Source: a virus (Duplodnaviria > Heunggongvirae > Uroviricota > Caudoviricetes). Taken from it: a DNA stretch of 10,205 nucleotides. Positions 1 to 10,205 of this stretch are shown here, piece after piece. The notes beneath the pieces are model-generated. The model searched no databases and was not told where the DNA came from. It saw only the letters and a program-made list of their open reading frames with translations. Both the position numbers and the translations under genes were made by a program. The stretch is from the IMG/VR virus record IMGVR_UViG_2531839454_000024. One strand, written 5' to 3'. Every line of letters begins with the position of its first letter. Position 1 is the first letter of the stretch.

Positions 1-933
1 ATGGACAACGACAAAATTGATCAACACAGCGACGAAATTGAAGTTGAGAGCGAAGAAAAAGAGCGCGGCAAAAAAATAGAAATAGATGAAGACCGACTCC
101 CCTCCCGGGCGATGGCAATTCATGAGCATATCCGCCAGGATGGTGAAAAAGAGCTGGAACGCGACGCAATGGCGCTACTGTGGTCAGCCATTGCGGCGGG
201 TCTGTCGATGGGCGCTTCGCTACTGGCAAAAGGGATATTTCATGTCGAACTGGAAGGAGTGCCAGGCAGCTTCTTACTGGAGAATCTCGGTTATACCTTT
301 GGTTTTATTATCGTCATTATGGCCCCCCAGCAATTATTTACCGAAAACACCGTGACTGCGGTACTACCCGTCATGCAAAAACCGACAATGAGCAACGTCG
401 GCTTACTTATGCGATTATGGGGCGTCGTGCTGCTGGGTAATATTCTCGGGACAGGTATTGCTGCATGGGCATTTGAATATATGCCTATCTTCAATGAAGA
501 AACTCGCGATGCATTTGTCAAAATCGGCATGGATGTGATGAAGAACACCCCCAGCGAGATGTTTGCCAACGCGATCATTTCCGGCTGGCTGATCGCCACT
601 ATGGTTTGGATGTTTCCTGCTGCGGGTGCGGCAAAGATTGTGGTGATTATATTGATGACCTGGCTTATTGCACTGGGTGACACCACCCACATCGTTGTCG
701 GTTCTGTTGAAATCCTCTATCTGGTGTTTAACGGCACGCTGCACTGGAGCGATTTCATCTGGCCCTTCGCACTACCTACTTTAGCGGGGAACATCTGCGG
801 CGGCACCTTTATCTTCGCGTTAATGAGTCATGCACAGATTCGTAACGACATGAGCAACAAGCGTAAAGCAGAAGCACGCCAAAAAGCAGAACGTGCGGAA
901 AACATTAAGAAAAATGATAAAAACCCAGCATAA
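1..933 (+). CDS. yfdC: Formate/nitrite transporter (FNT) family inner membrane protein, YfdC-like
   Basis: 310-aa ORF starting at window position 1. Charged N-terminal tail followed by multiple hydrophobic helices. I recognise the sequence as E. coli YfdC, the gene that precedes argW in the chromosome. GC-rich codon usage typical of the core genome. Confidence 0.88.
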   Translation: MDNDKIDQHSDEIEVESEEKERGKKIEIDEDRLPSRAMAIHEHIRQDGEKELERDAMALLWSAIAAGLSMGASLLAKGIFHVELEGVPGSFLLENLGYTFGFIIVIMAPQQLFTENTVTAVLPVMQKPTMSNVGLLMRLWGVVLLGNILGTGIAAWAFEYMPIFNEETRDAFVKIGMDVMKNTPSEMFANAIISGWLIATMVWMFPAAGAAKIVVIILMTWLIALGDTTHIVVGSVEILYLVFNGTLHWSDFIWPFALPTLAGNICGGTFIFALMSHAQIRNDMSNKRKAEARQKAERAENIKKNDKNPA

Positions 934-1008: not shown

Positions 1009-1083
1009 GTCCTCTTAGTTAAATGGATATAACGAGCCCCTCCTAAGGGCTAATTGCAGGTTCGATTCCTGCAGGGGACACTT
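1009..1083 (+). tRNA. argW: tRNA-Arg (anticodon CCU)
   Basis: Cloverleaf readable by eye: acceptor GTCCTCT / AGGGGAC, anticodon loop CTCCTAA with CCT anticodon, T-arm GCAGG-TTCGATT-CCTGC. Sequence ends ...GGGGACAC then TT (1082-1083) rather than CCA, so only the first C of the 3' CCA is encoded. Confidence 0.9.
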
Positions 1084-1256
1084 TAAAGACCTTTCTCTAC
1101 ATTTCACTTCATTACATAACCACTTAAAAAAAACAGTAAGTTATCACCGAATCGGCCTGATTTTCATTTCAGTTAATTTCATGACATTACAACCTCGTGA
1201 TGGTATAAGTGATGGTATTCCCCAGTTCGATATGCAGATACCATCAATTTACCAAA

Positions 1257-2543
1257 ATGAGTACAGATATGGCCATTAATGTGCTTTCCCCCAAACAGAT
1301 AGAAAACGCCAAGCCGAAGACCAATGATTACAAACTTACCGATGGAGGGAGTTTGTATCTACTGGTACGAAAGACTGGTGGAAAATACTGGCGTATGAAT
1401 TATCGTTTTGATGGAAAACAAGTGACATTGGCATTAGGGGTCTACCCAGATGTCTCACTTGCAACAGCGCGGAAACGGCGTGATGAAGCCAGGCAACTAC
1501 TAGCCGATGGCCGTGATCCTCGCGAAGCAAAGAAACCCAAAAAGGAAGACCCAATTTCCCCCACGTTCGAGAGTGTTGCCAGAGAGTGGCATAGTGGAAC
1601 GATGGGGCATCCTGAGTGGAAAGAGATCACCCGTAAAAAAATTCTCCGAGAAATGGAAAACCACCTCTTTCCTGCCATCGGTTCAAAGCCTATCGATACG
1701 CTCAAAACCCGTGACTTGATGCCGATGCTGGTTGAGATGACTGAGAAAGGAATTGGTGCCACAACGAGCCGGGTAAAAACCACTATGACGAGCATCTTCC
1801 GTTATGCCGTGCAACGTGGAATTGTCGATTACAACCCTGCCCACGATCTAAAAGGTGCAATTACGGCCCCCAAAGTACGACATCGCCCCGCACTACCTCT
1901 CGAACGTTTACCTGAACTGTTAGCGAAAACGAGAAGTTACACGGGAAGACCATTGACTCGCCTAGCAGTTCTCTTTTCCCTGCACACTTTTGTGCGATCC
2001 AGCGAACTACGACATGCCAGATGGGAGGAGATCGACATTGAAAATGGGCTATGGACGATACCAGGACAACGTGAAGAGATCGCAGGGGTTAAATTCTCAG
2101 ATCGGGGTGCAAAGATGGGGGCTGCTCATTATGTCCCGCTATCTAGTCAGGCTATCGGGGTACTGGAGGATATAAGGAAAATCAGTGGTGAATATCTGCT
2201 GGTTTTCCCCGGTGACAGCAACCCATATAAACCGATGAGCGAAAACACAGTTAATAAAGCACTGCGAACGATGGGTTACGACACTCAAACTGATGTATGC
2301 TTACATGGGTTCAGGGCGATGGCCTGCTCTGCACTGACCGAATCAGGACTCTGGTCACGCGATGCAGTTGAACGGCAGATGAGTCACCAAGAAAGAAACG
2401 AAGTGCGGGCAGCATATGTGCATCTTGCGCAGCACATGCAGGAACGCCGCAGAATGATGCAATGGTGGTCTAATTATCTGGAACTAAATAAGGACGAATT
2501 TCATGCTCCTTATGACTTATCAGGTATTAACATTATCAATTAA
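1257..2543 (+). CDS. int: P4-type tyrosine integrase (site-specific recombinase, tRNA-targeting)
   Basis: N-terminal arm-binding-type motif (KQIENAKPK...YKLTDGGSLYLLV...KYWRMNYRF...TLALGVYPDVSLATARKRRDEAR) typical of P4 Int. C-terminal catalytic region has HGFRAMA and a terminal AAYVHL tyrosine. Start is uncertain: ATG 1257 or ATG 1269; the 1209 GTG extension in the ORF track is unlikely. Sits directly 3' of a tRNA gene, as is usual for this family. Confidence 0.9.
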   Translation: MSTDMAINVLSPKQIENAKPKTNDYKLTDGGSLYLLVRKTGGKYWRMNYRFDGKQVTLALGVYPDVSLATARKRRDEARQLLADGRDPREAKKPKKEDPISPTFESVAREWHSGTMGHPEWKEITRKKILREMENHLFPAIGSKPIDTLKTRDLMPMLVEMTEKGIGATTSRVKTTMTSIFRYAVQRGIVDYNPAHDLKGAITAPKVRHRPALPLERLPELLAKTRSYTGRPLTRLAVLFSLHTFVRSSELRHARWEEIDIENGLWTIPGQREEIAGVKFSDRGAKMGAAHYVPLSSQAIGVLEDIRKISGEYLLVFPGDSNPYKPMSENTVNKALRTMGYDTQTDVCLHGFRAMACSALTESGLWSRDAVERQMSHQERNEVRAAYVHLAQHMQERRRMMQWWSNYLELNKDEFHAPYDLSGINIIN

Positions 2544-2556
2544 ATACTCTTATAAT
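2527..2556 (+). promoter_or_regulatory. Candidate sigma70 promoter for the orphan gene (TTAACA-N18-TATAAT)
   Basis: TTAACA at 2527-2532, 18-bp spacer, perfect TATAAT at 2551-2556. Overlaps the last codons of int. Followed by SD AGAGG (2564-2568) and ATG 2574. Confidence 0.4.
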
Positions 2557-2573
2557 TTAAAACAGAGGTCATA

Positions 2574-3455
2574 ATGCAGCATTCAACAGAGAATGAAACT
2601 ATATTCTTAGGAAATCTATGGATTGACAAAAAAATACCACCATTAGAATATTGTTCATTTGAACGCGCTTCAAGACTATTAGAATGCGAGATTGATGATT
2701 TATTACACCTATACGAAATAGGCGCTTTTAATATCGCATTCAAGGCGGATGGACTTGCAGTTAGATTTAATGTTAATTTCCTCAATAAAAATCAGAAAGT
2801 GGAAATTGACTTAATTCATCCCGTATTAACTAATCAATCACTAGAGATGGAATTTTCAACAATATGGTATGACCTTAAAGATGATTCCTTTGAACATTTT
2901 GAAAATGGGCTTCAAATTATAGGATTTGCCTGTGGTATTTGGTACGCCGATGATATGATAAGTGACATAAAAAATGGATTAGCTATAGATCCAGATTATG
3001 AATTCAGGCTTAAACCGGTAAAAATACGAGATAATGTTTTGATGGCAACGGCCTCATATGAAGGAAATAAGGTCATTGATATTCCATTTGAAGATCTTCT
3101 TATCATGCGAAGAGATTTAGAGTTAATATGGAAATCAGTAAAAACTGGAATTCCTATGCCAAGTTTACTTACGAAAAGAATTTCATCTGAACCTAAAATC
3201 CCCAAGCGATTAAATAACACTGCTGAGCATCATGCAAAAAATAGGGAGGGGTTATTAAATGCAGCCATATATATATTAGCAAAATACCCAAGCGAATGTC
3301 GTGGTGAAAGAAAAGAGATAAGTCCTGAAAAGTGGACTAACGCCATAATTAAACATTTAGGAGAGCTACCTCCAATATTTATCACTAATGAACAAGAAAT
3401 CTTAAGAAAATTACGATTAGCGGTTAATCATGCGGGATTAAAACAAAAGGGGTAG
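2574..3455 (+). CDS. Hypothetical protein, 293 aa, no family recognised; AT-rich orphan cargo gene
   Basis: Clean ORF with a strong SD 5 nt upstream. Markedly lower G+C than its neighbours (about one third by hand count of four 60-nt samples). No TM helices and no motif I can assign. Confidence 0.8.
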   Translation: MQHSTENETIFLGNLWIDKKIPPLEYCSFERASRLLECEIDDLLHLYEIGAFNIAFKADGLAVRFNVNFLNKNQKVEIDLIHPVLTNQSLEMEFSTIWYDLKDDSFEHFENGLQIIGFACGIWYADDMISDIKNGLAIDPDYEFRLKPVKIRDNVLMATASYEGNKVIDIPFEDLLIMRRDLELIWKSVKTGIPMPSLLTKRISSEPKIPKRLNNTAEHHAKNREGLLNAAIYILAKYPSECRGERKEISPEKWTNAIIKHLGELPPIFITNEQEILRKLRLAVNHAGLKQKG

Positions 3456-3521
3456 ACTGAAACAATCTACAGGTAGAGTTGATTACACTACCTTCACAGC
3501 ATTTTGATATCCCCATAGTAT

Positions 3522-3550
3522 CTGCCGTGTTCATTACATAACACGGCAGG
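3522..3550 (+). promoter_or_regulatory. Perfect 10-bp inverted repeat (CTGCCGTGTT-9 nt-AACACGGCAG) just upstream of alpA
   Basis: Arms 3522-3531 and 3541-3550 are exact reverse complements. The loop is CATTACATA. The right arm abuts the weak alpA SD. Could be a terminator for the upstream orphan gene (no U-tract) or an operator or RBS-sequestering hairpin. Confidence 0.35.
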
Positions 3551-3557
3551 TAATTTC

Positions 3558-3773
3558 ATGACATTAAAAACTTATCCTATCACTGGACATGCCCGCCCAC
3601 GAGCTACTGCTGACTTTTTGCAAATAAGTACGGTTACTCTCTGGCGCTGGGAAAAGAACAATCCTGAATTTCCCAAATCTATACGCATTTCAAAACGGGT
3701 ATCTGTTTACGATGCACAAGAAATTAGGCAGTGGGTTAAAGCTCAATCAGCAGGATTGGAGGAAGTAGTGTAA
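3558..3773 (+). CDS. alpA: AlpA-family phage transcriptional regulator (excisionase-like HTH)
   Basis: 71-aa protein with the Phage_AlpA-type pattern FLQISTVTLWRWEKNNPEFPKSIRIS...VYDAQEIRQWV. Located downstream of a P4-type int, as in CP4-57-type islands. Confidence 0.85.
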   Translation: MTLKTYPITGHARPRATADFLQISTVTLWRWEKNNPEFPKSIRISKRVSVYDAQEIRQWVKAQSAGLEEVV

Positions 3774-3791
3774 TGACAATATTAACAAAGC

Positions 3792-3813
3792 TGGGGAGAA
3801 AAAAGCCTCCCCA
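3792..3813. terminator. Hairpin between convergent alpA and RHH genes (possible bidirectional terminator)
   Basis: Stem TGGGGAG 3792-3798 / CTCCCCA 3807-3813 with an A-rich 8-nt loop. Lies between the alpA stop (3773) and the stop of the minus-strand ORF (3823). Confidence 0.35.
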
Positions 3814-3822
3814 ACGTATTAA

Positions 3823-4017
3823 TCAATTCTTTGGTTCTAAACCTCGGCTTTGTAACTCTTTGCGTAGAATGCGCTTGATCCAAGCCGCTAGCGATTCATC
3901 GCCATCCTGCTGTTGTGCTTGTTCCATCAGTTCACGCAGTTCAGGGTCAAGTCGGAACTGGAATGGCGGATTCCCACGTCTTTCATTTTTGTGTGTTGAC
4001 ACGTCAATTACACCCAT
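3823..4017 (-). CDS. Small ribbon-helix-helix (Arc/CopG-like) DNA-binding protein, putative satellite repressor
   Basis: 64-aa ORF. PPFQFRLDPELRELMEQ...SLAAWIKRILRKEL fits a beta-strand plus two-helix RHH pattern. Divergent from the downstream replication operon. No clear SD, so the start is uncertain. Confidence 0.55.
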   Translation of the reverse strand: MGVIDVSTHKNERRGNPPFQFRLDPELRELMEQAQQQDGDESLAAWIKRILRKELQSRGLEPKN

Positions 4018-4051
4018 TGTAATGTATTTATGTGTAATGACACATTACACA
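3996..4051 (+). promoter_or_regulatory. Candidate promoter and operator for the replication operon
   Basis: TTGACA 3996-4001, 16-bp spacer, TGTAAT 4018-4023. Directly downstream is a perfect palindrome TGTGTAATG-ACA-CATTACACA (arms 4031-4039 and 4043-4051). Confidence 0.4.
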
Positions 4052-4133
4052 CAGAAAAACAAAATAGCAACGCCCCGGAGTGTTTGCAGCAGCACCGAGG
4101 CGTCTGACCAGCACGTTATATGAGGTAACGAAG

Positions 4134-4310
4134 ATGGCTAAACAGAAGTGTACCTGGTTATTTGCGGCGATCAACCGCAGTCAACGTAATGCCCGTCCGG
4201 TGATGTTAAGGATCACCGCAGATAACGAACGATCAGCGCGGCGCAGACTTGCCCCGGACTATGTACTGAGCTTTGCCGGGCGCATTCCCTGCGGAGGGGA
4301 ACATGCGTAA
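4134..4310 (+). CDS. Icd-like small protein (host cell division inhibitor Icd-like family), tentative
   Basis: 58 aa from ATG 4134 with SD GAGG 4122-4125. The sequence KCTWLFAAINRS...PVMLRITADNERSARRRLAPDYVLSFAGRIP matches my recollection of the Icd-like family common in P4-like elements. The GTG 4080 extension was rejected. Confidence 0.5.
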   Translation: MAKQKCTWLFAAINRSQRNARPVMLRITADNERSARRRLAPDYVLSFAGRIPCGGEHA

Positions 4311-4662
4311 TTATCCGCACCCCGGCGAACGCTGGCAGCATGAACGTGGCTGGACGGTCACGATTATCCGATTAATAGAAGCCTCGCCCTCTGTGGCGCT
4401 GGTTAATCCTGAATTCAGCTGTGAAGTGCTGATACGTCATGACAGCGACAACCAGCTATCTTCCTGCCCTCTGGCATGGTTTGAACAGCGGTATACGCGC
4501 CTGTTTGATGTACCGCTCTTTAAGCCTGCACCAGCTCCTGCAGGCGGTAGTGGTTCCGGCCCGCTGACACTGCATCCGTCTGTGCTATTTATCCGCTGGC
4601 GGGAGCGTAGCATATGGCGTTCTGCTGAGCCTGACGACGGTCACTATTCAAAGTTTCTCTGA
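4303..4662 (+). CDS. Hypothetical protein (possibly Ash-family-like), 119 aa
   Basis: ATG 4303 overlaps the stop of the Icd-like gene by 8 nt, with SD GGAGGGGA upstream. Coding-like composition. Family assignment is only from memory of typical P4-like annotations. Confidence 0.55.
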   Translation: MRNYPHPGERWQHERGWTVTIIRLIEASPSVALVNPEFSCEVLIRHDSDNQLSSCPLAWFEQRYTRLFDVPLFKPAPAPAGGSGSGPLTLHPSVLFIRWRERSIWRSAEPDDGHYSKFL

Positions 4663-4693
4663 CAAAATACCGCTGAAAACGGAGTAATCCACG

Positions 4694-4978
4694 ATGAATA
4701 TTTCAAACGGGCACAACGGTGCTCAGGGCCACACTTTGCCTGAAAAACACAATACCGGTGCTTTTGCCTATGGGTTGTCAGAGGACAGTTTCGGAAAGCT
4801 GACCCGCGCAAAAAATGCCTGCGACATGCTCCAGCTTCTCTTTTCTGAATACCCGTCTCAGGCCGGAGCACTGGACGCTGGCTGTGCGCATGGTGTCGCC
4901 GCGCTGATGGAGTACCTGCTGGCAGATTTGACGGATATTGCACACAGCTGCGCACTGATTGAAGGAGGTGCCAGATGA
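4694..4978 (+). CDS. Hypothetical protein, 94 aa
   Basis: ATG 4694 preceded by GGAG (4681-4684). Its stop overlaps the next start (ATGA at 4975-4978). Confidence 0.6.
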   Translation: MNISNGHNGAQGHTLPEKHNTGAFAYGLSEDSFGKLTRAKNACDMLQLLFSEYPSQAGALDAGCAHGVAALMEYLLADLTDIAHSCALIEGGAR

Positions 4979-5358
4979 ACCAGCCGCAGGTTTCCATTTT
5001 CCCGGCAGAAATGACCACCGCGCTTTACCGGCGGGCTATTGCTTCAGCATGGCGGCAGAAAATGCTGAACGAAACTGGTAGTGATCAGTATGGTCCGCAC
5101 AGCCTGACGGTGGAGCGTATTGAAATGGCCATTGCGCTGCATATCGAGTGCGTACTGATTAACGAGTACGGCGAAGTGCAGGGCGCCGCTGCCGCGCTGG
5201 CACTGCTGACTGACATGCTGGAGCCATCACTGCTGACCGCGCCGCCGGTACTGACCGCGCGCGGCTGTGAAGTGATGGCGGAGATGTACCGCACGCTTCC
5301 GGCGGCCTTTGATGACTTCTGCAGTACCGGTGTGACGTTGTATGAGGGGGAAGTATGA
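4975..5358 (+). CDS. Hypothetical protein, 127 aa
   Basis: Translationally coupled on both sides (ATGA overlaps at 4975-4978 and 5355-5358). SD-like GAAGGAGG upstream. Confidence 0.6.
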   Translation: MNQPQVSIFPAEMTTALYRRAIASAWRQKMLNETGSDQYGPHSLTVERIEMAIALHIECVLINEYGEVQGAAAALALLTDMLEPSLLTAPPVLTARGCEVMAEMYRTLPAAFDDFCSTGVTLYEGEV

Positions 5359-8027
5359 CAATACAGACGGTTACGCAGATTTCAGCCGCCGCACGGGGGA
5401 AATGGCCCGTTATTCTGCAGATGCTGCGTATTGATGTACCTGAAAACGGCAGGCACGGCCCCTGCCCGAAATGTGGGGGCAAGGATCGTTTTCGCCTTGA
5501 TGACCTTGACGGGCGCGGGACGTGGATCTGCAGCCAGTGTGGCAATGGTGACGGTCTGGATCTGGTTAAGCTCGTAACCGGTTACAGCGTCAGAAAGGCT
5601 GCGCAGGAGGTGGCGCAGGTGCTTAATGTGCCGGATGTGCAGGAACTGCCTGTTAAGCCTGCCAGACAAAAAGCCCCTAAACGCGACATGGGTCTTACCG
5701 TGGCGGCGCTGATGAAAGAGAGCCACACGGGAGAAAGCGCCTATCTGACAGGAAAAGGGTTCGCCGGATACCCGGCCTCTCTGACCGGAAGCGTGCAGCA
5801 TATCAGCGGTAAGGATTTTCCTGCCGGTTCCCTGCTGTTACCACTCACGACCAACACCGGAGCCGTGACCGGTGCACAGCTTATCGCCCCGACGGGTGAA
5901 AAAAGCATACTGCCCGGCAGCACGATGAAAGGCGCGTTTGTGTCGCTCAGCCCGTTACCGTCTGAACCACCGGTACAGGTGGTGATTACCGAAGGTTACG
6001 CTACGGCGCTGACGGTAAGCCAGCTCACTGCCGGATGCGTAGTGGCTGCCATATCTGCGGGCAACCTGCCCAATGTGGCGCAGTCGCTGCGGGCACGCTG
6101 GCCTGAGGTAAAAATTATCATCGCCGGTGATAACGATTTTCAGGACGGGGGGGAGAATCCCGGCAGAGCCTTTGCTGAACGGGCGGCAAAAGCTGTTGGC
6201 GGCTGGATGACGCTGCCACCAGGAGAGATTAAGGCTGACTGGAATGACTTTCATCGGGAGCACGGTATTACCCGTGCCCGTGAAGCCTTTCGCAACGGTC
6301 TGGTACTGTGCGGGGAAGGCCGCACGCAACTGCCGCACGGGTTCCGTCTTACCCAGGAATATCTCTGGTATGAAAAGCAGGTACAGCGCAACGGTGAGAC
6401 GGAGATCCAGAACGTCAAAATATGCAGCCCGCTGCGCGTGACGGCAATCACCTGCGATGCCGATGGCGGTAACTTCGGACGACTGCTGGAATGGGAAGAT
6501 ACGTGGGGTGAGTGTCGCCGCTGGGCGATGCCGATGGAAATGCTGAGCGGCAGTGGTGAGGAACTGCGCCGGGTACTGCTGGTTAACGGGCTGTCTTATA
6601 TCAGCACCACCGGTGAGGCACGCGCACGCCTGATGGAATATATCTCACTGTGTAAACCGGAACGCCGCGTGACCTGCGTCAGTCGTACTGGCTGGCATGG
6701 TCAGGTTTACGTCCTGCAGGATGAGGTCAGCGGTGAAGGTGCAGAGGGTGTCATTCTCCAGACCACTTCCGTGCAGGGGCGTGATTTCCGCGTGTCGGGC
6801 ACAACAGAGGAATGGCGGGAGCATGTATCCCGCTACTGTACCGGCAACTCCCGCGTGGCATTTGCTGTCAGCCTGGCCTTTGCTGCACCACTGTTACGGC
6901 TGGTTGGTATGGACGGCGGCGGCTACCACCTAAAAGGGGAATCGACAGACGGTAAGACCACCACCATGAAAGCGGCAACCTCCGTCTGCGGCGGGCCTGA
7001 CTACTGGCAGACATGGCGGGCCACCGGCAACGCGCTGGAGGGATGCGCCAGCCGCCGCAACGATGCCGCCATGATGCTTGATGAGATCCGGGAAGTTGAC
7101 GGACGCGAGGCAGGCAATATCGCCTACATGCTGGCAAACGGTCAGGGCAAGGGCCGTGCCGGTACGGACGGTGAGCTGCGTACCCGTAAGCAGTGGCGCC
7201 TGTTGTTCTTTTCAACTGGCGAGTTGTCTCTGACCGAACATGCGGCAAAGGCCGGTGAGCGTACTTTTGCCGGGATGGAAGTCAGGATGATCCAGATCCC
7301 AAGCGATTCCGGGAAGTTTGGCGTTTTTGAGGAGCTGCACGGCTTCGACAGCGGCAAGGCTCTGGCAGAGCATCTTGAATGGGCCACGTCCTGCTACTAC
7401 GGTTCGCCGTTCCGGGAGTGGCTGAAAGCACTGACCGCTGATCTTAACGGACTAACGGCACAGGCAAAATCGCTGATGAAGGAATATGCTGCCGCCCTGA
7501 CTCCTAAAGATGCAGGCAATCAGGTGGGCCGGGCTGTGAACCGCTTTGCACTGGTGGCGATGGCAGGTGAACTGGCAACCCGTCTGGGTATCACCGGCTG
7601 GCCTGAGGGTGAAGCACTGCGGGCAACCCGCGTCTGCCTGAACGCATGGCTGAAAGATCGCGGGCACACCGCCAATCAGGAAGATATCGCCGCACTGGAG
7701 CAGGTTCGCAGTTTCTTTACCGCGAATCAGTACAGCCGCTTTGCAGACTGGTATGACGAGCGCAACCGCCCCGGCAATATGGTGGGCTGGCGCAGGGTGG
7801 AGAAAGGCAGTACCGCGCAGGGCACGGAAGCTGTCACTACGTTCTATGTCATGCCGTCCGGCTGGAAAGAAATCTGCAGGGGATTTGACCCGCGTAAGGT
7901 GGCGCGTCTGTGCGCAGATCGTGGATACCTGCTGCCCTCCACTGATGGCAAACTCCAGACAACCATTCGCCCGCCAGAGATGAATCCCCGCAGGCTCTAT
8001 GTCTTCAACAGCGAGGTGCCGGGTTAA
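5355..8027 (+). CDS. Primase-helicase, P4 alpha-like (zinc-ribbon + TOPRIM + P-loop NTPase, DUF927-type)
   Basis: 890 aa. N-terminal CPKCGG...CSQCG zinc ribbon; TOPRIM-like ITEGYATALTV and IIAGDND; Walker A GESTDGKTT and Walker B-like MMLDEI. Iteron array lies immediately downstream. Confidence 0.9.
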   Translation: MTIQTVTQISAAARGKWPVILQMLRIDVPENGRHGPCPKCGGKDRFRLDDLDGRGTWICSQCGNGDGLDLVKLVTGYSVRKAAQEVAQVLNVPDVQELPVKPARQKAPKRDMGLTVAALMKESHTGESAYLTGKGFAGYPASLTGSVQHISGKDFPAGSLLLPLTTNTGAVTGAQLIAPTGEKSILPGSTMKGAFVSLSPLPSEPPVQVVITEGYATALTVSQLTAGCVVAAISAGNLPNVAQSLRARWPEVKIIIAGDNDFQDGGENPGRAFAERAAKAVGGWMTLPPGEIKADWNDFHREHGITRAREAFRNGLVLCGEGRTQLPHGFRLTQEYLWYEKQVQRNGETEIQNVKICSPLRVTAITCDADGGNFGRLLEWEDTWGECRRWAMPMEMLSGSGEELRRVLLVNGLSYISTTGEARARLMEYISLCKPERRVTCVSRTGWHGQVYVLQDEVSGEGAEGVILQTTSVQGRDFRVSGTTEEWREHVSRYCTGNSRVAFAVSLAFAAPLLRLVGMDGGGYHLKGESTDGKTTTMKAATSVCGGPDYWQTWRATGNALEGCASRRNDAAMMLDEIREVDGREAGNIAYMLANGQGKGRAGTDGELRTRKQWRLLFFSTGELSLTEHAAKAGERTFAGMEVRMIQIPSDSGKFGVFEELHGFDSGKALAEHLEWATSCYYGSPFREWLKALTADLNGLTAQAKSLMKEYAAALTPKDAGNQVGRAVNRFALVAMAGELATRLGITGWPEGEALRATRVCLNAWLKDRGHTANQEDIAALEQVRSFFTANQYSRFADWYDERNRPGNMVGWRRVEKGSTAQGTEAVTTFYVMPSGWKEICRGFDPRKVARLCADRGYLLPSTDGKLQTTIRPPEMNPRRLYVFNSEVPG

Positions 8028-8061
8028 GGCTTTGCGTGAGTCTTATTTATTAAGGGTAACA

Positions 8062-8249
8062 GGTGAAACAGGTGGAACAACCGTATTTTACAGGGCTGAA
8101 CCTGTTCCACCTTCTGAAATAGTGAGGTGGAACAGATGTAACGCCAGCCAATCCGCTGTTCCACCTTGTTACCCGCGATGTTCCACCGGTGCAGTGTATA
8201 TAAATGCTTTATAAAACAAAGCAGTAACACATGTTTCACCTGTTCCACC
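8062..8249. repeat. Iteron array, probable satellite replication origin
   Basis: Eight copies of the 9-mer TGTT(C/T)CACC. Plus orientation at 8103-8111, 8157-8165, 8179-8187, 8232-8240, 8241-8249; minus orientation at 8062-8070, 8071-8079, 8126-8134. Tandem pairs at both ends in opposite orientation. AT-rich stretch 8194-8231 sits between clusters. Confidence 0.6.
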
Positions 8250-8337
8250 GCATCAGGGACATAAAGCAGACTGAAACAGAGGGTATTTTTATCTGGCTGG
8301 CTTTCATAGCCACGTCTGAATAACCGCAAGCGTCCGT

Positions 8338-8393
8338 TGTGCCAGCCACCACACACTGAGCACCGATAGTGTGCTTGTGTCAGCCACGACACA
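8338..8393 (+). promoter_or_regulatory. Psid-like late promoter with two Ogr/Delta-type TGT-N12-ACA dyads
   Basis: TGT-N12-ACA at 8338-8355 and again at 8376-8393, centres 38 bp apart. ATG 8428 with SD AGGAG 8418-8422. Spacing is compatible with activator sites near -55 and -18 relative to a start around 8400. Confidence 0.5.
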
Positions 8394-8427
8394 ATTGACG
8401 TAACGAACCAACCCGACAGGAGAAGTC

Positions 8428-9171
8428 ATGAACAACACCGCAGTGAATAACAACCTTTCCACTTTTCCGGCTGTAACGCAGCGGGCACTGGAAACCATGA
8501 ACACAGCCAGAAACGCATGGCTTGAAGCACGTCGTCAGCAGAAAGCGGCAGCGGATAATATTGCGACAATCCGCCAGCGTCGCGCTGAAATGGAAGCCAC
8601 GACGAACACACTGAATGAGGAGTGGCGCACGCTGTTTCGTGAAAGTCAGGGCGTGGTCTCAAAGGAAATGAAAAAACTGCGCACGGAAATTGCGCTGGGA
8701 CGAGAAACGCTTGAGGATTTTGATGAGCTGCTGGCGGCTCAGGAAAGCGAAAATGCACTTTTGCCGCAGAAAGCTGCGGAATTAGCCGGAAAGTATATCC
8801 ACGCGCATAACATTCTTGTGGATATTCGCGCAAAACAAATCTGGGAAGATTTTATGCAGTCGCATGGAAAAGCGCTTATTCAGACGCTGAGCCTGCTTAA
8901 ATCCACAATGGGCCGGGAAGCCAGTGCCGTTGTGGGTGTGGTGAATTCAGTTAATGACCCGGACACAGTGCTGAAAGACTTTATTCATAAACATATCACC
9001 AGACCGGCTCTGGCTAACGATGCGATGCCTGAACAGGACCCGGTGTTTAAACTGGCGGGAGTTGCCCCGGATTATGCGGCGCGTCTGGATTTCAGTAATC
9101 AACTCTCTCCGGCAGCTATGCATAAAATAAAGGTTCGTCAGGAACTTGCTGAGAAGGAGAAAGCTGTATGA
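8428..9171 (+). CDS. Sid/Psu-family protein, probable capsid size determination (Sid-like) protein
   Basis: 247 aa (P4 Sid is about 244 aa). Helical, A/E/K/R/Q-rich. Contains WEDFMQSHGKAL, the same motif class as the next gene's SNFMQANGAAL. Sits behind the late promoter. Confidence 0.45.
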   Translation: MNNTAVNNNLSTFPAVTQRALETMNTARNAWLEARRQQKAAADNIATIRQRRAEMEATTNTLNEEWRTLFRESQGVVSKEMKKLRTEIALGRETLEDFDELLAAQESENALLPQKAAELAGKYIHAHNILVDIRAKQIWEDFMQSHGKALIQTLSLLKSTMGREASAVVGVVNSVNDPDTVLKDFIHKHITRPALANDAMPEQDPVFKLAGVAPDYAARLDFSNQLSPAAMHKIKVRQELAEKEKAV

Positions 9172-9719
9172 CGGCCCGAGGCACACCTGACCAGGCACTT
9201 ACCAGTTTTCGGAATGCCCGTATTCTGTGGGCCGGACATAGTGAGACCCGAAAAGCCGTTGAACAACAGATAGCATCTCTCCTCGCTGCCACAGAAAAAC
9301 CAACAGATTATGCCCGACAGCTCGAATTACTGCGGGAACGTCTGGATGTGCTGAAATGGCAAATTAACTGTGCTGCTCGCGAATGCATTTACTCGCAGCA
9401 TTTATTGATGGAGGCCTGCACTGAAGCTGCTCTCAGCAATTTTATGCAGGCGAATGGGGCAGCCCTGACATCTGCACTGGCTCCGTTCCTGAAGGGGCGC
9501 GGAGGGGTTGACGTTGCGTCCCGTATATTACGCAGTGCTCTGGTTCGCCAGCTGGCAATAACACCGCCTGAAATTGCCGGGGATTATCGTGAGATCCTGG
9601 ATGAATCCGGTTTGATGCCAGACCCCGGGATGATTCGTGATTGCCAGGGCTCTTACACCCCGGCACAACATCTGCGTTTTCAGCAACGCCTGAATGACAT
9701 TAACGATATACAGGAGTGA
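9168..9719 (+). CDS. psu: Psu-like polarity suppression protein
   Basis: 183 aa (P4 Psu is about 190 aa). Motifs KWQINCAARECI, FMQANGAALTSALAP and YTPAQ match my recollection of P4 Psu. Start ATGA overlaps the upstream stop. Followed by an Ogr/Delta-like gene. Confidence 0.6.
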   Translation: MTARGTPDQALTSFRNARILWAGHSETRKAVEQQIASLLAATEKPTDYARQLELLRERLDVLKWQINCAARECIYSQHLLMEACTEAALSNFMQANGAALTSALAPFLKGRGGVDVASRILRSALVRQLAITPPEIAGDYREILDESGLMPDPGMIRDCQGSYTPAQHLRFQQRLNDINDIQE

Positions 9720-9724
9720 TATTA

Positions 9725-9848
9725 ATGGCACTTAAATGTCCGGAATGCGGTACAGTTGCACACGCCAGAACAGCAGCCTATGAAGCTCCGTCAGTTAAAC
9801 GCTCGTGGTATCAGTGCCAGAATCTGGAATGTTCCTGCACATTTACGG
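9725..9848 (+). pseudogene. Ogr/Delta-like zinc-finger late-gene activator, truncated by IS66-family insertion
   Basis: MALKCPECGTVAHARTAAYEAPSVKRSWYQCQNLECSCTF aligns to the P2 Ogr pattern C-x2-C...HARTS...QCQN..C. Homology stops near codon 42, where the IS end GTAAGCG begins (9849). SD CAGGAG 9711-9716. Confidence 0.7.
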
Positions 9849-10205
9849 GTAAGCGACTCGTCAGAACCGTATTGATATTTACTGAGAGCTCAGATCAACT
9901 TTCCAGGGCAACAGATCGCGTACCCGGTTTGCCGGCCAATCCTGGATATGTTCAATGACGTAACGCAGCCACTTTTCTGGCTCCACATTGTTCAGACGGC
10001 ATGTGCCGATCAGCGAGTACAACACCGCCGCATGTTCACCACCGCTGTCGGAACCCGCGAACATCCAGTTTTTCCGGCCTACGGCCACTCCCCGTAAGGC
10101 GTTCTCTGCGATGTTGTTGTCGATTTCCACCCAGCCATTACTGCAGTACACGTTCAGTGCATCCCACTGTTTCAGCAGGTATGCGAACGCTTTTGCCGTA
10201 TCTGA
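9849..10205 (-). mobile_element. IS66-family insertion sequence, right-hand end only (continues past window edge)
   Basis: Terminus begins GTAAGCG at 9849-9855, typical of IS66-family ends. Carries the C-terminal part of an IS66-type transposase on the minus strand. Confidence 0.8.
9879..10205 (-). CDS. IS66-family transposase (TnpC), C-terminal fragment, 5' end outside window
   Basis: Minus-strand frame is open to the window edge. Translation ...AFAYLLKQWDALNVYCSNGWVEIDNNIAENALRGVAVGRKNWMFAGSDSGGEHAAVLYSLIGTCRLNNVEPEKWLRYVIEHIQDW... is the conserved IS66 transposase C-terminus. Stop TAA at 9879-9881. Confidence 0.85.
   Translation of the reverse strand, partial: SDTAKAFAYLLKQWDALNVYCSNGWVEIDNNIAENALRGVAVGRKNWMFAGSDSGGEHAAVLYSLIGTCRLNNVEPEKWLRYVIEHIQDWPANRVRDLLPWKVDLSSQ

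Follow-up and report, generated by a model that had tools for sequence, protein, structure and literature searches.

The right-hand end of the 10,205-nt stretch of DNA analysed here (the window) raises the question of whether the activator gene of a phage satellite has been broken by a mobile element and, if so, what the satellite has lost. An initial annotation, made from the sequence alone, had described an ORF that follows the Ogr pattern up to ...CTFT, breaks off at about codon 42 and runs into an IS66-type transposase C-terminus encoded on the opposite strand up to the window edge. Our analysis bears out both observations. It points with high confidence to a complete, apparently active IS66-family element of 2,699 bp that transposed once into the ogr/delta-like gene of a tRNA-Arg(CCT) P4-like satellite, probably crippling the satellite.

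The window is E. coli chromosome, in which yfdC and tRNA-Arg(CCT) are followed by a P4-like satellite located in the 3′ end of the tRNA (Table 1). All satellite genes lie on the plus strand, in the order integrase, 293-aa protein, AlpA, Icd-like, DUF5375, alpha-type primase, sid-like, psu and ogr/delta-like. RefSeq annotation and Pfam searches thus co-localised the P4-like core genes integrase, alpA, alpha, sid, psu and delta at this site. The 293-aa ORF between integrase and alpA (2574-3455) is hypothetical in RefSeq, and its product gave no match in Pfam or PADLOC. The name of the sid-like gene in RefSeq varies between 'septation initiation protein' and 'phage polarity suppression protein'; the weak Psu match of its product, which covers residues 119-237, suggests a distant homology of Sid with Psu. 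A cluster of ~9 iterons, (C)TGTTCCACC / GGTGGAACA, present in both orientations, was observed in the interval from the primase gene to the late promoter (8058-8252). By analogy with P4, this cluster is probably the replication origin of the satellite.

Table 1. Features of the window and the evidence for them. Positions are window coordinates (window coordinate = L001 coordinate minus 2,401).
Feature	Position	Strand	Remarks
yfdC	1-933		E. coli chromosome
tRNA-Arg(CCT) gene	1009-1081
Integrase		plus	RefSeq annotation
AlpA	3558-3773	plus	Pfam
Icd-like protein		plus	between AlpA and alpha-type primase
DUF5375 protein		plus	between Icd-like protein and alpha-type primase
Alpha-type primase	5355-8027	plus	Pfam: Zn-ribbon, Toprim and DUF927 domains
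Psid-type late promoter of sid-like/psu/delta operon (predicted)	8338-8393	plus	two TGT-N12-ACA dyads; pattern search
sid-like gene	8428-9171	plus	weak Pfam Psu match, E = 1.8e-9; intact
psu	9168-9719	plus	Pfam Psu, E = 2.3e-44; intact
ogr/delta-like gene, 5′ part	9725-9848	plus	41 codons and first base of codon 42
Target-site duplication (8 bp), left copy	9841-9848		ATTTACGG
IS-encoded read-through tail of truncated ORF	9848-9958	plus	GKRLVRTVLIFTESSDQLSRATDRVPGLPANPGYVQ, then stop; ORF list and translation
IS66-family element, first 357 bp in window	9849-10205	minus	continues past window edge
IS terminal inverted repeat, tnpC-proximal	9849-9870		GTAAGCGACTCGTCAGAACCGT
tnpC 3′ end (DDE transposase)	9879-10205	minus	stop codon 9879-9881; RefSeq CDS L001 12280-13851

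TGT-N12-ACA dyads are the type of site bound by Ogr/Delta activators. The window contains six such dyads, versus 2.5 expected by chance; the weight therefore lies on matching spacing rather than on the motif itself. Two near-identical dyads, TGTGCCAGCCACCACACA (8338-8355) and TGTGTCAGCCACGACACA (8376-8393), show a spacing of 38 bp, the second being placed 52 bp ahead of the sid-like ATG. The geometry of P4 Psid is the same: dyads at 9493 and 9531, 38 bp apart, the second 52 bp before the sid ATG at 9583. By this analogy, the ogr/delta-like gene would be the last gene of a Psid-type late operon.

The ogr/delta-like gene begins at ATG 9725, with AGGAG 8-9 nt upstream; the psu stop codon ends 5 nt before it. 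The ORF from this ATG encodes MALKCPECG...CQNLECSCTFT (native part, MALKCPECGTVAHARTAAYEAPSVKRSWYQCQNLECSCTFT), and its truncated product matched Pfam Ogr_Delta (PF04606) with E = 2.7e-13 over profile positions 1-39 of 47. The protein has the motif C-X2-C-X22-C-X4-C, whose zinc-binding cysteines (C5, C8, C31 and C36) are invariant in the alignment described below and are all kept in the stump. Codon 41 (ACG) occupies 9845-9847, and G9848 is the first base of native codon 42 (GCA, Ala); the gene is therefore broken after the first base of codon 42. The reading frame then continues through 36 IS codons (Gly42-Gln77), which if translated would yield a 77-aa chimera. This read-through tail showed no similarity to Ogr/Delta proteins in the alignment. 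A complete Ogr_Delta domain is absent in the window and is present only after in silico removal of the IS. RefSeq labels the 5′ part 'ogr/Delta-like zinc finger family protein, incomplete, missing C-terminus'; this pseudogene feature (9725-9904; L001 12126-12305) overshoots the junction at 9848 by 56 bp and overlaps the tnpC CDS.

IS66-family terminal inverted repeats begin with 5′-GTAA, and GTAAGCG starts exactly at 9849. The minus strand of 9882-10205 matched Pfam DDE_Tnp_IS66 (E = 1e-18, profile positions 228-283 of 284) and DDE_Tnp_IS66_C (E = 5e-17). tnpA and tnpB lie beyond the window edge and were read in loci L001, L004 and L005, which are identical. The complete element is 2,699 bp long (L001 12250-14948), with tnpA, tnpB and tnpC intact. 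All three are encoded on the same strand, in antisense orientation to the late operon of the satellite, and their transcription runs toward psu and sid. NCBIfam scores were 478 bits for TnpC (transpos_IS66, cut-off 180), 128.9 for TnpB (IS66_TnpB, cut-off 50) and 295.8 for TnpA (IS66_access_TnpA, cut-off 150); full-length TnpC has the four Pfam domains LZ, zf-IS66, DDE_Tnp_IS66 and IS66_C. The terminal repeats are imperfect: GTAAGCGACTCGTCAGAACCGT and inverted GTAACCGGCTCATTTAAACCGT match at 16 of 22 bases. At the sequence level, the element has every hallmark of the IS66 family. PGAP labels the transposase 'ISCro1 family', and the exact IS name follows the PGAP label; an ISCro1 element elsewhere is 2,824 bp (PMC8764528), versus 2,699 bp here. 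A full-text literature search gave no useful open description of IS66-family ends and duplications. Among 5,426 complete E. coli genomes, 2,938 contained sequence matching the 357-bp IS end of the window, with as many as 34 places in a single genome.

The initial annotation had taken the boundary at 9849 to be an IS terminus. The terminal repeats agree with this, as does a further copy of the IS at locus L002, which has the same two ends and different flanks up to both. When window 1081-10205 was compared with 61 satellite-bearing E. coli genomes, the similarity broke off at query base 8768 (window 9848) in 58 of them. The other IS end, the 8-bp duplication and the missing 3′ part of the gene, for which the annotation had suggested extending the sequence rightward, were all found there. 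The target-site duplication ATTTACGG recurs, with a perfect 8/8 match, directly past the far IS end (L001 14949-14956); the chance expectation is ~1 in 65,000. The missing part of the gene comes immediately after this copy. The arrangement is what a simple insertion at a staggered cut, after the first base of codon 42, would leave behind.

We searched 5,426 complete E. coli genomes for the same junction. Window 9600-10205 was present at 100% identity in three of them, all from ETEC strains: 504838, ATCC 43896 and L3_E36_ETEC. The annotated order in all three is 5′ ogr/Delta pseudogene, tnpC-tnpB-tnpA (opposite strand), 3′ ogr/Delta pseudogene, YecA-family gene and csc, and RefSeq labels the IS 'IS66-like element ISCro1 family'. 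SNPs separate the window from these genomes at three positions (326, 992 and 4298), with a further one (7543) in the case of strain 504838. All of them lie outside the region of the insertion, and the window thus derives from a fourth strain that is closely related. The IS-interrupted allele is common to at least four strains.

In silico deletion of the IS and one ATTTACGG copy gave a 90-aa ORF, MALKCPECGTVAHARTAAYEAPSVKRSWYQCQNLECSCTFTALESVDKIIMKPRRNEQEPDKSQPPVKQQQTLNRYGSASKLSSRQQIPV. The restored protein matched Ogr_Delta over the entire profile (positions 1-47 of 47, E = 6.9e-16), with a score of 58.4 bits versus 50.1 bits for the stump (gathering cut-off 26.3). The 550-bp reconstructed empty site was 100% identical to strain 025542-1, which carries the same satellite in the same tRNA, free of the IS and with one ATTTACGG copy only. 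Comparison of this strain with ATCC 43896 revealed 0 SNPs over ~19.5 kb of flanks; in the right flank, 0 of 9,650 bp differ. In 808 genomes, at least 80% of the reconstructed site is covered by an uninterrupted homologue, and no IS-free relative among these ends naturally at codon 41-42. Only 504838, ATCC 43896 and L3_E36_ETEC among the 61 satellite-bearing genomes continue into the IS; in the other 58, which are free of it, similarity to the window ends at 9848. The gene is thus not naturally short. A naturally short ORF is ruled out by the 100% identical empty site, the 90-aa homologues and the phage Ogr alignments. The comparison with IS-free homologues that the initial annotation had proposed gives the same answer, since they encode 90 aa, not 41 aa.

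The inactivation had also been called recent-looking. The absence of SNPs in ~19.5 kb of flanks, the perfect duplication, the intact tnp genes and the difference of 0-1 SNP between IS copies fit that description. These data suggest one recent insertion, inherited within one ETEC lineage. The IS copy is apparently active, because its ORFs are intact, its duplication is perfect and copies at different loci differ by 0-1 SNP. Satellites of the same type are split by other IS elements elsewhere: by IS1 in CE0021a (NZ_CP119006.1) and by IS100 (IS21 family) in AR_0019 (NZ_CP024889.1). Thus, at least 3 of the 61 satellite copies have been struck independently by an IS.

To see what the insertion removes from the protein, we aligned the satellite protein with P2 Ogr, the Ogr homologue of the P2-like Yersinia phage vB_YpM_MHG39, both halves of P4 Delta and the protein of the EHEC-type satellite. 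Through the cut, the Ogr_Delta domain loses its final 8 positions and the protein its entire C-terminal half. The conserved segment ESVxxxIxKP (residues 44-53) and all residues beyond it are replaced by unrelated IS-encoded residues. P2 Ogr and the homologue from the Yersinia phage share this segment with the satellite protein, and the two halves of P4 Delta preserve it in part. Similarity to phage Ogr proteins extends past residue 42, to residues 46-74, in all matches listed. A PDB search revealed no solved Ogr/Delta structure (best E = 0.31). Loss of activator function is likely, because the conserved segment is replaced and the phage homologues among the matches listed align beyond residue 42.

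The 90-codon gene is split by the IS into a 41-codon stump fused to 36 IS codons and a promoterless 3′ remnant of 49 codons. The product would retain its C4 zinc module without the ESVxxxIxKP segment and the C-terminal half, and would be inactive as an activator. On its own, the satellite would be unable to induce helper late genes or to raise expression of its Psid-type operon, and would depend on helper Ogr. P2 Ogr and P4 Delta reportedly work independently of each other. A satellite lacking delta may therefore still be mobilised by a helper that has its own ogr, and helper ogr might activate the intact sid-like and psu genes via the Psid-type promoter. Among the P4-like core genes, delta is the one that is almost never absent, and a survey deems it essential (PMC8628076). 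The distance from attL to attR is 13,879 bp with the IS versus 11,172 bp without it (P4, 11,624 bp), and this growth from 11.2 to 13.9 kb probably impairs packaging into the small P4-type capsid. P4-size heads package DNA most efficiently when it has the length of the P4 genome (PMC9942202), so the 24% size increase would be a second handicap. The net result may be that the satellite is crippled, or locked in the chromosome.

The insertion could be real and its product nevertheless not inactivated, with the 77-aa chimera either functional or dominant-negative at TGT-N12-ACA sites and the satellite modified rather than crippled. We consider this unlikely. The stump does keep its four cysteines and 39 of the 47 Ogr_Delta positions, and the truncated ORF retains its promoter and its own ribosome-binding site for making the chimera. 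Part of the P2 Ogr C-terminus is reportedly dispensable, which suggests that the family tolerates some truncation; however, the cut here is inside the conserved domain. A literature search on Ogr C-terminal truncation gave nothing usable. Replacement of residues 44-53 by unrelated sequence, and the extension of all listed phage homologues past residue 42, both argue against a functional chimera. The presence of the allele in at least four strains indicates that there is no strong counter-selection in the host; however, this is uninformative about how the satellite functions, since the cell is not harmed by a dead satellite and may even benefit from it.

A still less probable variant, to which we give very little credence, is that the chimera keeps its zinc module without the activating segment, sits on TGT-N12-ACA sites and damps late transcription of P2-like phages, whether incoming or resident, while the oversized, delta-less satellite is locked in place with its cargo. 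If this were true, the IS would have converted the satellite from a mobile element into an anti-phage locus that is fixed in the ETEC lineage and serves the host. Inactivation of the activator by simple insertion is the reading that we retain.

Right of the IS come the last 49 codons of the gene, then a hairpin with a T-run and a non-coding stretch that is conserved and ends, ~200 bp past the stop codon, in a GC-rich cos-like motif, GAAGCGGGCAGGCGTGCGGGGC; a YecA-family gene and attR follow. attR is marked by a 16-bp repeat of the tRNA 3′ end, TTCGATTCCTGCAGGG (L001 17341-17356). P4-like satellites usually carry defence genes in the slot between the cos-like site and attR. This variable slot holds a gene for a 487-aa YecA-family/SEC-C protein (L001 15369-16832, minus strand), of which only the C-terminal SEC-C motif matches Pfam and PADLOC, the rest being without family. 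Similarity to a second satellite type extends only a little beyond the cos-like motif. The cos assignment draws on position and on conservation between the two satellites. It is tentative, because no significant match to P2/P4 cos was found: the 19-nt P2/P4 cos sequence GGCGAGGCGGGGAAAGCAC does not occur in the extended locus at ≤3 mismatches, and BLAST of the P4 cos region gave non-significant matches only. Beyond attR lie csc sucrose-utilisation genes and a truncated dsdX; the tRNA-Arg locus next to yfdC is thus a composite of several acquisitions.

The initial annotation further proposed that the IS may have mobilised or separated downstream satellite cargo. Mobilisation is not supported, given the perfect duplication, the right flank colinear with that of the IS-free strain, and the presence of both cargo and attR. 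Separation holds only in the trivial sense that the cos-like site and cargo are now 2.7 kb farther off; nothing has been lost. An intact duplication together with a colinear right flank indicates a simple insertion with no other rearrangement. An IS-mediated rearrangement (deletion, inversion or composite-transposon movement) that removed or moved satellite cargo beyond the window is accordingly highly improbable. Its support comes from a related EHEC-type satellite (L002; NZ_AP018808.1, with ~100 similar genomes), in which the same 2,699-bp IS (6624-9322), differing by 1 SNP and in the same orientation, lies in a rearrangement-like setting ~280 bp downstream of an intact delta gene and just past the cos-like motif. 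No target duplication flanks the L002 IS, and the DNA to its right is unrelated to the locus studied here and holds further IS66-family elements, a pattern which suggests that an IS-mediated rearrangement took place there. At the present locus, in contrast, the duplication is perfect and the right flank matches the IS-free strain through attR; IS-mediated cargo loss is refuted for the three complete genomes by the duplication, the colinear flank and attR. IS66-type repeats as widespread as this one often break or mis-join short-read assemblies, but the chance that the junction is a mis-assembly or a chimeric contig joining the satellite to an IS copy is negligible, since both ends, with the target duplication, are identical in three independently sequenced complete genomes.

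RefSeq already annotates both pseudogene halves and the IS in the three genomes, and gene disruptions of this kind are ordinary and already documented. The event provides a clean, datable example of IS-mediated phage satellite decay, and little beyond bookkeeping. For the delta-null satellite that occurs naturally in this lineage, strain 025542-1 provides an isogenic counterpart free of the IS, and this pair can be used for asking whether a satellite needs its own activator when the helper has ogr. In regard to annotation, the pseudogene halves and the 8-bp duplication allow exact restoration of the ancestral gene.

The element resembles known members of the IS66 family (IS66, IS679, ISEc8 and ISCro1 type) in its three-gene layout, DDE TnpC domains, length of ~2.7 kb, GTAA ends and 8-bp duplication; no notable difference was apparent in these features. 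The restored protein is 47% identical to P2 Ogr over residues 3-53, and both have the zinc motif and the full domain. P2 Ogr is a single-domain protein of 72 aa, and the restored protein is likewise single-domain, with 90 aa; in contrast, P4 Delta is tandem-duplicated (166 aa). With 59.7 bits, the restored protein falls below the NCBIfam equivalog cut-off of 116 for Ogr proper. The late gene order also differs, being sid-delta-psu in P4 and sid-psu-delta here; such an order swap is found in 20% of P4-like elements (PMC8628076). The alpha and sid operons are divergent in P4, whereas all genes of this satellite lie on one strand. The iteron cluster at 8058-8252 resembles the type-1 repeats of P4 ori/crr (8-bp units in the P4 record). 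The satellite shares with P4-like satellites (PMC8628076; SatelliteFinder, PMC10085698) the same core genes, an integrase by the tRNA and a cargo slot after the cos-like site. Without the IS it is 11.2 kb long, near P4 size; with the IS it is 13.9 kb long and its delta gene is broken.
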